Virus record (IMG/VR): IMGVR_UViG_2869924733_000009
Strand: one strand, 5' to 3'
DNA length: 15,526 bases
Source: a virus
Taxonomy: Duplodnaviria > Heunggongvirae > Uroviricota > Caudoviricetes
The notes beneath the pieces were generated by a model, which was not told the origin of the DNA, did no database searches, and saw only the letters and a list, made by a program, of their open reading frames with translations. Positions 9,847 through 12,288 of this stretch are shown here, in pieces. Each line of letters starts with the position of its first letter. Position 1 is the stretch's first letter. The position numbers and the translations under genes were made by a program.

Positions 9847-12288
9847 ATGAGCACTGATAAAGAAGAATTTGCACTATATTGCGAAGCAAAAAATGTCAAA
9901 GTAAGAAAACGCCTAGGAATTAAAGGTGGTTTTTACTGGACTACAGCAAAAAAATTATCTGTTGCAATCTCCCGCTGCATTACCGCAATGGATGACAACG
10001 ATTATGATGAAGACGACTTTAAAAAACCCGTCCGCGTCAATTTGCCCGTTGTTGACGACCTTCCGCCAGAAGGCGTGTTTGATACTGAATTCTGCAACCG
10101 CTATGAAAAAGGCGGGAAAGATGGCATCACAATGACATTTATCGGCCCTTCCCCCTCTGTTCAGGACAAATCAGCCAGCACTGATAATACCAACATCAAC
10201 GGCGAAGACATGACTGAGATTGAGGAGAGCATGCTTCTACCTGTCTCCGGTCAGGAACTGCCCATTCGTTGGCTTGCTCAACACGGCAGCGAAAAACCAG
10301 TAACGCACGTTTCACGCGACGAACTCCAGGCATTACACATTGCACGGGCTGAAGAACTACCGGCTGTTACTGCCCTGGCTATTTCGCATAAAACCAGTCT
10401 GCTCGACTCGCTGGAGATTCGCGACCTCCACAAACTGGTTCGTGACACTGACAAAGTTTTCCCTAATCCTGGTAATTCAGACCTGGGACTAATAACTGCT
10501 TTTTTCGAAGCATACCTGGACGCTGACTACACTGATCGGGGTCTGCTGACAAAAGAGTGGATGAAAGGAAATCGTGTTTCACGCATCACCCGCACGGCTT
10601 CCGGTGCTAATGCTGGCGGTGGGAACAAAACCGATCGCAATCCGAATTTAGTACACACCCTCGACACACTGGATGTGGAGATTGCAGCAGCCACACTTCC
10701 GATGGATTTTAATATTTATGAAATTCCGGGCAGCGTTTATCGTCGCGCAAAAGAAGTAGTCCTGAAAAAAGAAAGTCCGTTCAAAGAATGGTCCGCAGCA
10801 CTTCGTGCAACCCCGGGTATTCTGGACTATTCCCGCGCCGCTATTTTTGCACTTATCCTAAGCGCACCCCCTGAATTTTATCACTACCCGGGACGCCTTC
10901 AGGGGTATATCAACGCCTATTTGACAGAAACTGATCACGAGAACCCCAGCAAGGAAACTCTCACAGCTGCCCGGCATACGCCGGAAAAAGATATCCTGGA
11001 AGAAATTAACCGCGAGGTGGTTACTGAGCGTGAAACAGAAGAAGAAAAACCACAACCATCTGACGCAATGGCAGGTGAACAGGCAACAACTGAAACAATG
11101 GAACCGGATACAACTGAACATTGCCAGAACGCGCAGTCGCTGGATGCTCAGTCGCAGGTGAGTTCCGCTAACCAAGTAAAAGTCACCGCTGACGAAGTAA
11201 ACAAAATTATGCAGGCAGCCAATATCAGCCAGCCTGACGCCGATAAGTTACTTGCTGTATCGCGTGGTGAATTTGTTGAGGGGATTAGCGACCCTAATGA
11301 TCCGAAATGGGTCAAGGGGATCCAGACTCGCGATTCTGTGAACCAGAACCAGCATGAATCGGAACGGAACGACCAAAAAGCGGAACAAAACAGCCCAAAT
11401 GCGTTACAAAACGAGCCAGAAACGAAACAATCCGAACCAGTAGCGCAACAGGAACCGGAAAAAGTCTGCACCGCCTGCGGTCAGAGCGGTGGCGGCAACT
11501 ACCCTGATTGTGGCGCGGTGATGGACGACGCAACATACCAGAAAACATTCGATGAAGAGAATCAGGTTGAAGTTCAGGAAAATGATCCGGAGGAAATGGA
11601 AGGCGCTGAACATCCACACAAGGAGAATGCTGGCAGCGCTCAGGACCACGCCAGCGATAGTAAAACTGGCGAGACGGCAGATCCCTTAATTACGGTGAAT
11701 GGTCATCACGAAATCACATCCACCAGCAGGACGTGTGACCATCTAATGATCGACCTTGAAACCATGGGAAAAAATCCTGATGCCCCGATCATCTCAATAG
11801 GTGCAATATTTTTCGATCCGCAAACCGGAGATATGGGACCCGAATTTAGTAAGACTATCGATCTGGAAACTGCTGGCGGAGTCATTGATCGGGACACCAT
11901 TAAATGGTGGCTTAAGCAATCACGCGAAGCGCAATCTGCCATTATGACCGATGAAATCCCGTTAGATGATGCACTGTTACAATTGCGGGAATTTATCGAC
12001 GAAAACTCCGGTGAATTTTTTGTTCAGGTCTGGGGAAATGGAGCCAACTTCGACAACACGATTTTGCGCCGTTCATACGAACGGCAGGGGATCCCCTGCC
12101 CGTGGCGTTACTACAACGATCGCGATGTACGCACAATCGTTGAGCTGGGGAAAGCCATAGACTTCGATGCCAGAACGGCTATTCCATTCGAAGGTGAGCG
12201 CCATAATGCACTTGATGACGCTCGTTACCAGGCAAAATACGTTTCAGCTATCTGGCAAAAACTGATCCCGAGTCAGGCTGATTTTTAA
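9847..12288 (+). CDS. Large prophage protein (813 aa) with C-terminal DnaQ-like DEDDh 3'-5' exonuclease domain, in the recE/exo position upstream of xis-int; N-terminal ~600 aa of unknown function with an acidic linker
   Basis: C-terminal motifs Exo [10 protein letters not shown], Exo [15 protein letters not shown], Exo [16 protein letters not shown]. Acidic E/Q/T-rich low-complexity linker (~aa 380-600) with a CTACGQ...PDCG Cys cluster. No RecT/Bet-like ORF follows. Confidence 0.85.

Follow-up and report, generated by a model that had tools for sequence, protein, structure and literature searches.

The window considered here is a stretch of 15,526 nucleotides (nt) of Caudoviricetes DNA (IMG/VR record IMGVR_UViG_2869924733_000009), analyzed at its full length, and the gene in question is an open reading frame (ORF) on its plus strand, 9847..12288, which opens with ATG and encodes a protein of 813 amino acids (aa). 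We have next to no doubt that this protein is a paralogue of RecE in which the PD-(D/E)XK 5'-3' domain has been exchanged for a DEDDh domain of the DexA family; it is just as secure that a RecE-type N-terminal region with its acidic linker (~630 aa) is fused here to a DexA/Rv2179c-family DEDDh domain (~180 aa). As to what the protein does, the explanation that we consider best overall, and hold tentatively, is that of a lytic-cycle 3'-5' exonuclease working on DNA ends in phages that would rely on the RecBCD, Chi, and RecA of the host.

It should be said at once that the RecE-N::DEDDh hybrid is very common in Escherichia coli prophages and is already in the databases. Both of its unusual features, a DnaQ-like nuclease and the absence of an annealase, have likewise been described for lambdoid phages, in the survey of 325 of them by Zheng, Casjens, Davidson, Amundsen, and Smith (Genome Res 2025, PMC12315714), and the window protein is a RecE-type N-terminal variant of a kind already described. 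The exact 813-aa protein is on deposit from Shigella dysenteriae as “exonuclease / 3'-5' exoribonuclease,” which agrees with the load of insertion sequences (ISs) in the window. A literature search turned up no functional work on a PF16473/PF06630 prophage exonuclease or on ydfE, the pseudogene to which we return in the final section.

Nuclease domain, N-terminal region, and the junction between them

A preliminary description of this DNA, made from the letters alone, had read the DEDDh motifs DLET, NGANFD, and HNALDDA in the ORF, and had taken the C-terminal domain to be DnaQ-like and not PD-(D/E)XK. Both statements hold. The motifs are present (DLET at residues 636-639, NGANFD at 731-736, and HNALDDA at 786-792), and the five catalytic residues D636, E638, D736, H786, and D791, which align with D7, E9, D119, H186, and D191 of T4 DexA, are invariant across 41 homologues. 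Pfam assigns residues 632-803 to PF16473 (Rv2179c-like) over profile positions 2-177 of 177 (E 7.8e-68; 228 bits vs. a cut-off of 27), while the match to PF00929 is sub-threshold only. T4 DexA itself matches PF16473, and is the sole significant sequence match in the PDB.

Structure prediction gives the same picture. An AlphaFold model of residues 616-813, with 41 homologues as input, reached a predicted local distance difference test (pLDDT) score of 86.6 and a predicted template modeling (pTM) score of 0.83. Among solved structures, Foldseek ranked T4 DexA first (8KEL; E 2.6e-11, TM 0.73), followed by RNase T, Orn/REXO2, a Cas2-associated DnaQ domain, and Cap18. No PD-(D/E)XK protein was among the matches to this model; the comparison with the RecE/lambda-Exo fold that the preliminary description had proposed thus returned DEDDh folds only. 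Going by motifs and fold, 3'-5' exonuclease activity is highly probable, and the domain would be Mg2+-dependent and would act on free DNA 3' ends.

Could it instead be an RNA 3'-5' exonuclease that works on phage or host transcripts, such as early-left operon RNA or the 3' ends of small RNAs (sRNAs) or transfer RNAs (tRNAs)? The family is named after the Mycobacterium tuberculosis exoribonuclease Rv2179c, many of its members are annotated by NCBI as 3'-5' exoribonuclease, and the model has close structural neighbors in RNase T, Orn, and REXO2. We nonetheless regard this as quite improbable: among solved relatives it is DexA, a DNA exonuclease, that stands nearest in both sequence and fold; the DEDDh domain is fused to the N-terminal region of a nuclease of DNA recombination; and DEDDh enzymes often take both nucleic acids, so the family name carries little weight.

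The preliminary description had also likened the N-terminal two thirds, along with the acidic linker, to RecE, and comparison with E. coli K-12 bears it out. By BLASTP, residues 58-616 align with residues 50-592 of the Rac RecE of K-12, with 331 of 566 positions identical (58%), and there is no BLASTP match to that protein beyond residue 616. The NCBIfam RecE equivalog model (NF007259) matches residues 1-616 at model positions 1-603 of 877 with 933 bits, under its cut-off of 1269. When the RecE nuclease domain (RecE 593-866) was compared with the 813-aa protein, neither BLASTP nor tblastn gave any similarity. The DNA of the gene compares with K-12 recE in mosaic fashion (92% identical over 10186-10638 and 75% over 11038-11690), and the similarity stops at 11690, in residue 615; from 11177 to 12296, the gene matches the nuclease gene of phage Tritos at 96% DNA identity. 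A stand-alone Salmonella homologue starts MNNLMIDLET, and its MIDLET aligns with residues 634-639. The end of the RecE similarity at 615 and this MIDLET start at 634 together place the junction within residues 616-632.

The domain break therefore falls at about the start of the RecE nuclease domain, which in its crystallized form begins at residue 606, and “catalytic-domain swap,” the term used in the preliminary description, is a fair description. A review places the RecE nuclease domain at 564-866 (PMC11611040). The Chi octamer inside the junction (11720-11727) may be there by chance.

The linker, residues 361-632, contains 22% D/E and 8% K/R, and is probably disordered. Within it, a CxxC...CxxC motif (residues 541-555) is found in RecE and Tritos as well, with the third cysteine replaced by Tyr552 in the window allele. 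Only 2 of 120 close homologues have this tyrosine (the other 118 have cysteine), and Tyr552 may be a Shigella-lineage defect of what would be a zinc-binding motif. A full-length, single-sequence AlphaFold model (pLDDT 37.6) was uninformative on the N-terminal fold; the helical stretch that it predicts best in the N-terminal region is residues 270-359 (pLDDT 56-74).

How widely is this N-terminal region used, and with what? An exhaustive search with residues 58-400 found 185 representatives (50% clustering) among 1.84 billion proteins, and by this count the family is narrow. The 86 representatives of at least 450 aa include 23 with a RecE-type PD-(D/E)XK domain, 14 with a DEDDh domain (at N-terminal identities down to ~31%), and 49 with neither, some of which may be truncated gene calls; among these 49 are two RecT fusions and one with a weak PD-(D/E)XK-like match, and the rest have no recognizable C-terminal domain. 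In one of the fusions (P0244, 703 aa), an Exonuc_VIII segment at 2-178 is joined to RecT at 528-678 and the nuclease domain is missing; one other representative is similar. The survey of lambdoid phages also mentions “RecE-2” proteins without a nuclease domain (PMC12315714). With such different enzymatic ends attached to it, the RecE-type N-terminus is a combinable module. Its known effect, in RecE, is to enhance linear-linear recombination (PMC11611040).

Operon, missing partners, and distribution

The absence of a RecT/Bet partner, which the preliminary description had asserted, is borne out by scans of the neighboring genes and by tblastn. No annealase family of Pfam (RecT, Bet/Erf, or other) was found in the neighbor genes of eight distinct contexts of the 813-aa protein, nor in five divergent representatives with other integrases, sites, and hosts (N-terminal identity 31-58%), in which the exonuclease gene lies directly before an excisionase and/or integrase gene; the recT survey of homologous prophages that had been suggested was thus negative throughout. 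When the window and 20 related loci were searched by tblastn with RecT and the RecE nuclease domain as queries, there was no match, while the control locus scored 100%. Among the upstream operon genes of the window (8152..9753) there is no open frame big enough for an annealase. No RecT/Bet-like gene had been overlooked in the operon, and no annealase is annotated in the complete 46-kb genome of phage Tritos. As for the Rac-type PD-(D/E)XK domain, among the matches listed its full-query matches all overlap recT.

Single-stranded DNA-binding protein (SSB) and anti-RecBCD proteins (Gam, GamL, Abc2, and MuGam) were not found among the neighbors, where small ORFs without a family could still hide one; the neighbor genes belong only to the DUF1391, DicB, and DUF1482 families, or encode <80 aa without a Pfam match. 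Chi sites occur in the window, a 15-kb fragment of a degraded prophage, at 1480, 11720, and 13327, all on the minus strand (three vs. none). This orientation is the “top strand” of the lambda map, and Tritos has nine top-strand and two bottom-strand sites.

In relatives free of ISs (locus L001 and eight contexts), the order is DicA/CI-like repressor, ydfA, ydfB, ydfC, DicF, dicB, ydfD, exonuclease, xis (DUF4224), integrase, tRNA-Ser, and mtfA. The exonuclease gene closes a repressor-controlled early-left (dicB-type) operon, just before xis-int; the coordinates in the window are collected in Table 1. The last place in a repressed operon that includes the toxic dicB and DicF points to expression on induction and not in the lysogen, and we think it probable that the exonuclease is made only after prophage induction or upon infection, that is, in the lytic cycle. 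A crude consensus scan found no sigma-70-like site on the plus strand of 8100-9847; the counts of this promoter/terminator scan were not above those in shuffled sequence. Divergent relatives (loci L028, L029, L030, L031, and L033) have an Rrf2-like gene (108-116 aa) directly upstream of the RecE-N::DEDDh gene, replacing dicB/ydfD.

Table 1. Coordinates of the exonuclease gene, its parts, and its surroundings in the window
Feature	Position	Strand	Basis or remark
RecE-N::DEDDh exonuclease, whole gene, 813 aa	9847..12288	+
RecE-type N-terminal region, residues 1-615	9847..11691	+	NCBIfam, BLASTP, and DNA comparison with K-12 recE
Exonuc_VIII segment PF06630, residues 57-189	10015..10413	+	Pfam, E 5.5e-36
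Segment common to the YdfE-type N-terminus of the Tritos/Qin variant (40% identity), residues 270-359	10654..10923	+
Acidic polar linker, residues 361-632	10927..11742	+	Composition; common to RecE and the Tritos variant
CxxC...(Y)xxC motif, residues 541-555	11467..11511	+	Alignment with RecE, Tritos, and close homologues
Chi octamer GCTGGTGG at the RecE-like/DEDDh junction	11720..11727	-
DEDDh 3'-5' exonuclease domain (predicted activity; PF16473, T4 DexA / Rv2179c family), residues 633-813	11743..12285	+
IS630-type transposase gene (DDE_3 + helix-turn-helix)	306-1337	-	Adjoins ydaT-like and cro-like genes
DicA/CI-like repressor of the operon	2078..2497	+
IS66-family cluster, 5.5 kb	2741-8212		Between repressor gene and ydfA; 8-bp target duplication
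ydfA-like DUF1391	8152-8430	+
ydfC-like	8590-8808	+
DicF sRNA	9151-9202	+	Rfam
dicB	9377-9565	+
ydfD	9562-9753	+
xis (DUF4224), first 12 codons	12347..12382	+	Starts 58 bp past the exonuclease stop
IS5-family element, 915 bp	12383..13297	-	Two transposase ORFs, DDE_Tnp_1; 3-bp CTA target duplication
Rest of xis	13298..13468	+
Tyrosine integrase	13468..14493	+	Followed by tRNA-Ser(CGA) and mtfA
tRNA-Ser(CGA)	14546-14635	-

The distance from the exonuclease gene to xis had been given correctly in the preliminary description, but the xis of the window is not a whole gene: the IS5-family element splits it after codon 12, and the prophage is probably unable to excise normally. Upstream, the IS66-family cluster contains three perfect inverted-repeat pairs (1468, 891, and 369 nt), resembling two rearranged copies, and detaches the early-left operon, and with it the exonuclease gene, from the upstream control region. 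The IS630-type transposase gene is a further sign of IS invasion of the Shigella-typical sort.

Is the gene then a chimera without function, left by an accidental exchange of the nuclease domain in a decaying recE? The window copy does lie in a degraded prophage, with xis broken and the operon separated from its repressor/promoter region, and has the unusual Cys-to-Tyr replacement in its cysteine motif. Yet the architecture is intact in functional phages and thousands of genomes, recurs among the long representatives (14 of 86 at 50% clustering) even at the lowest N-terminal identity given above, and keeps all catalytic residues. Given this conservation, lack of function is very unlikely, to the point of being nearly negligible.

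The figures from complete E. coli genomes are large. DNA close to the DEDDh domain (at least ~85% identity) is found in 4052 of 5426 (~75%), with 8111 occurrences in all and a maximum of seven in one genome; 1730 genomes have the nuclease domain of Rac RecE, and 1236 have the full 813-aa variant at a query coverage of at least 80%. The assertion that this slot “normally” holds exo/bet or recE/recT was therefore overstated, since the DEDDh type outnumbers Rac-type RecE in E. coli genomes. The protein database holds hundreds of near-identical PF06630 + PF16473 entries, named “exonuclease” or “3'-5' exoribonuclease.” Among induced or isolated phages, the gene is carried by vB_EcoS-640R1 and relatives (96-97% identical), and versions with other N-termini by Tritos, mEp460, Evi, PPompW, and Stx2a phages. 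DNA close to the DEDDh domain, which E. coli genomes often hold in several prophages, thus also occurs in Shiga toxin (Stx)-converting and other active lambdoid phages. The phage copies are mostly annotated as “exodeoxyribonuclease VIII,” a label that wrongly implies RecE-like 5'-3' activity and a RecET pathway.

Please note that not every short entry in the databases is a short protein. A “split” version of the gene in one contig (L004, GCA_002972015.1) was rejected as an artefact, N runs having broken a single exonuclease ORF into three called genes (456 + 157 + 183 aa). By the same token, cut or masked genes are the probable source of the 183-aa “stand-alone” E. coli cluster P0074, and many “partial” or “stand-alone” E. 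coli 3'-5' exoribonuclease entries are probably such fragments. The true stand-alone forms are the Salmonella protein of 189 aa and a P2-like prophage protein of 193 aa.

Possible roles of the exonuclease

What use might this modular nuclease be to Qin/Rac/Tritos-type lambdoid phages? It could trim or blunt the 3' ends of phage replication or recombination intermediates. Ends so trimmed would then pass to the RecBCD/Chi/RecA pathway of the host, which phages that are annealase-less, Gam-less, and Chi-rich would need, while the RecE-type N-terminal region would, at a guess, act as a tether or targeting module, the same as in RecE. We see an end-processing role in host-dependent recombination as possible rather than probable. 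Our preference for it comes from the Tritos class, from the orientation bias of Chi, and from the example of T4 DexA, a DNA 3'-5' exonuclease that has a part in double-strand-break repair during intron homing. In the survey, the “Tritos” class is defined as having a nuclease and many Chi sites, with no single-strand annealing protein (SAP), SSB, or anti-RecBCD. The same article places DnaQ-like 3'-5' nucleases in or near lambdoid early-left Rec modules, usually beside int, lists many lambdoid phages without an annealase or without any Rec module, and argues that phages without a recombination system of their own use host RecBCD via Chi (PMC12315714).

Several points weigh against such a role. 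RecA needs 3' tails, and because 3'-5' exonucleases take these away, the usual effect of such enzymes is to hinder recombination, as the survey also states (PMC12315714); the proposed benefit is thus not obvious. The names that Pfam and NCBI give the family (exoribonucleases, after Rv2179c) leave room for an RNA substrate, and one EcD-like member of the family, 40% identical, is reported to be a nuclease that defends against T4 (PMC12153337). The consensus promoter scan was crude, so that an internal promoter active in lysogens could exist. Lastly, “targeting module” is itself a guess about the RecE N-terminal region.

EcD brings up the question of whether this is a defence or exclusion nuclease, degrading the nucleic acid of superinfecting phages (modified DNA, as with EcD/HREX, or the 3' ends of RNA phages, as with TONDO), with the N-terminal region as an auxiliary or targeting domain. 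Kang et al. (NAR 2025, PMC12153337) present the structure of T4 DexA and report that its E. coli homologue EcD degrades DNA containing 5-hydroxymethylcytosine (5hmC) and protects against T4 (“HREX”). A 2026 preprint describes ISG20-like DEDDh exonucleases (“TONDO”) with variable auxiliary domains, on prophages and plasmids, which block the RNA phages MS2 and Qbeta (PMC13344964). The PF16473 family is common to T4 DexA and EcD, and an EcD-like protein of 193 aa is 40% identical to the DEDDh domain of the window (E 9e-41); this comparison sequence is an EcD-like gene found via the published EcD primers, and its C-terminus differs from that of EcD. Defence would also suit a gene that is intact in a heavily IS-ridden Shigella prophage, and a domain that 75% of complete E. 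coli genomes carry, at up to seven places each.

We consider defence unlikely all the same. The exonuclease gene comes last in a repressed early-left operon, past the toxic dicB/DicF and with no promoter of its own detected; this is not the moron-like location known from prophage defence genes, and PADLOC gave no significant defence-system match. Of the residues discussed for DexA, the 5hmC-linked W152 and D169 correspond to Y756 and K769 (the alignment around D169 being uncertain) and are not kept, and D90, the “tetramer” residue, is retained as D708; the EcD-like protein has W, E, and A at the three positions. Both the position in the operon and the lack of conservation at the “HREX” residues speak against constitutive defence directed at modified DNA. 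Moreover, the EcD-like gene is itself in a P2-like early operon, and its native role may be in the lytic cycle too.

That gene (L019:7989-8570) belongs to the early operon of a P2-like prophage of E. coli 2013C-3033, where its neighbors are cox-like genes, a ParE-like gene, a Dam methylase gene, and a replication endonuclease gene. Going by this one EcD-like gene, the published “bacterial defence” enzyme of the EcD type is a phage early gene in its native setting. Work on the window protein would bear on whether DexA-like exonucleases of prophages are, as claimed, defence systems.

The reverse role, that of an early lytic anti-defence factor, has to be weighed as well. Such an enzyme would remove host immune nucleic acids with a free 3' end, such as retron multicopy single-stranded DNA (msDNA), the complementary DNA (cDNA) of defence reverse transcriptases (RTs), or primers and signals; alternatively, it would strip the 3' tails that would set off such immune systems. 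The early-operon position and inferred lytic expression fit, DEDDh enzymes occur on both sides of the phage-host conflict (Cap18 and Cas2-DnaQ are among the structural neighbors), and the title of a preprint has host SbcB controlling a defence-associated reverse transcriptase (DRT) system. Fast modular exchange of the N-terminus is, in addition, typical of conflict genes. There is, however, no match to a known anti-defence family, and the syntenic partners are xis and int rather than known anti-defence loci; we find this role distinctly unlikely.

To return to end processing, a wider version of it can be outlined. The RecE-type N-terminus might be a portable targeting platform that is combined with nucleases of opposite polarity: with PD-(D/E)XK and RecT it would give a self-sufficient annealing pathway, and with DEDDh and no annealase a distinct and widespread strategy, the DEDDh version channeling ends into RecBCD-Chi-RecA by blunting them or taking off their 3' tails. 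Stripping of 3' tails might further suppress competing annealing or immune pathways. As a whole this platform idea is speculative and more likely wrong than right by a good measure; if true, the commonest “RecE-like” gene of E. coli would be an uncharacterized switch of recombination pathway. Establishing the role of a 3'-5' exonuclease in phages without an annealase or RecBCD inhibitor would test the proposal that they depend on host RecBCD/Chi, and would inform the function of the RecE N-terminal region, which is relevant to recombineering with full-length RecE.

Comparison with known systems

The nearest well-known system is Rac RecE. The two proteins have in common the N-terminal ~600 residues, including the Exonuc_VIII segment, the acidic linker, and the cysteine motif, and their genes have the same early-left operon slot, close upstream of xis-int. 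They differ at the other end: RecE finishes in a PD-(D/E)XK 5'-3' exonuclease for double-stranded DNA and is followed by recT, its working partner, whereas the 813-aa protein finishes in a DEDDh domain, is without recT, and falls under the NCBIfam RecE cut-off.

Tritos gp27 (823 aa) is alike in its linker and DEDDh domain (the stretch of 96% DNA identity, window 11177-12296), and the Tritos operon, ydfABC-DicF-dicB-ydfD-exo-xis-int, is of the same build, with annealase, SSB, and anti-RecBCD likewise absent. Unlike the window protein, its N-terminal ~440 aa are of the YdfE type, with ~90 aa in common at 40% identity. The first 256 residues of gp27 match, at 99% identity, the Qin pseudogene ydfE of K-12 (b1577, L003:5079-5999), which corresponds to the first 256 codons of a Tritos-type exonuclease gene, cut by IS2; ydfE is the remnant of such a gene, and K-12 once had this nuclease. 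The K-12 ydfE was considered as an orthologue of the 813-aa protein and rejected, as there is no BLASTP similarity and ydfE is a Tritos-type 5' remnant.

The stand-alone PF16473 protein of Salmonella (P0113, 189 aa) is 59% identical in the domain, and its gene is directly upstream of xis-int with no annealase nearby. It differs in having no N-terminal extension, and in its upstream genes (YfdP, DUF2303, and DndB-like). In this Salmonella prophage (L009:6743-8570), the DndB-like, YfdP, and DUF2303 genes precede the exonuclease, a different early-left set in front of the same slot.

T4 DexA (PDB 8KEL/8KEN) has the PF16473 domain and the DEDDh residues, and is the best solved match in sequence and structure, with an identity to the window domain of only ~20-29%. 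It is, however, a stand-alone protein of 227 aa from a virulent phage, with extra loops (one of which carries D169) and no RecE-like N-terminus. EcD is, like the window protein, a prophage-borne DexA homologue of the PF16473 family; the EcD-like form differs in being stand-alone (~190 aa), and in keeping the 5hmC-reading tryptophan and an acidic residue, with alanine at the position of D90. With the host enzymes RNase T, oligoribonuclease, and ExoX/ExoI, and with TONDO, the likeness is one of fold and catalytic chemistry. These belong to other subfamilies (PF00929 is sub-threshold here), and TONDO is likened from its description and not from its sequence; with TONDO, the window protein also has in common a DEDDh domain combined with variable auxiliary domains on mobile elements.

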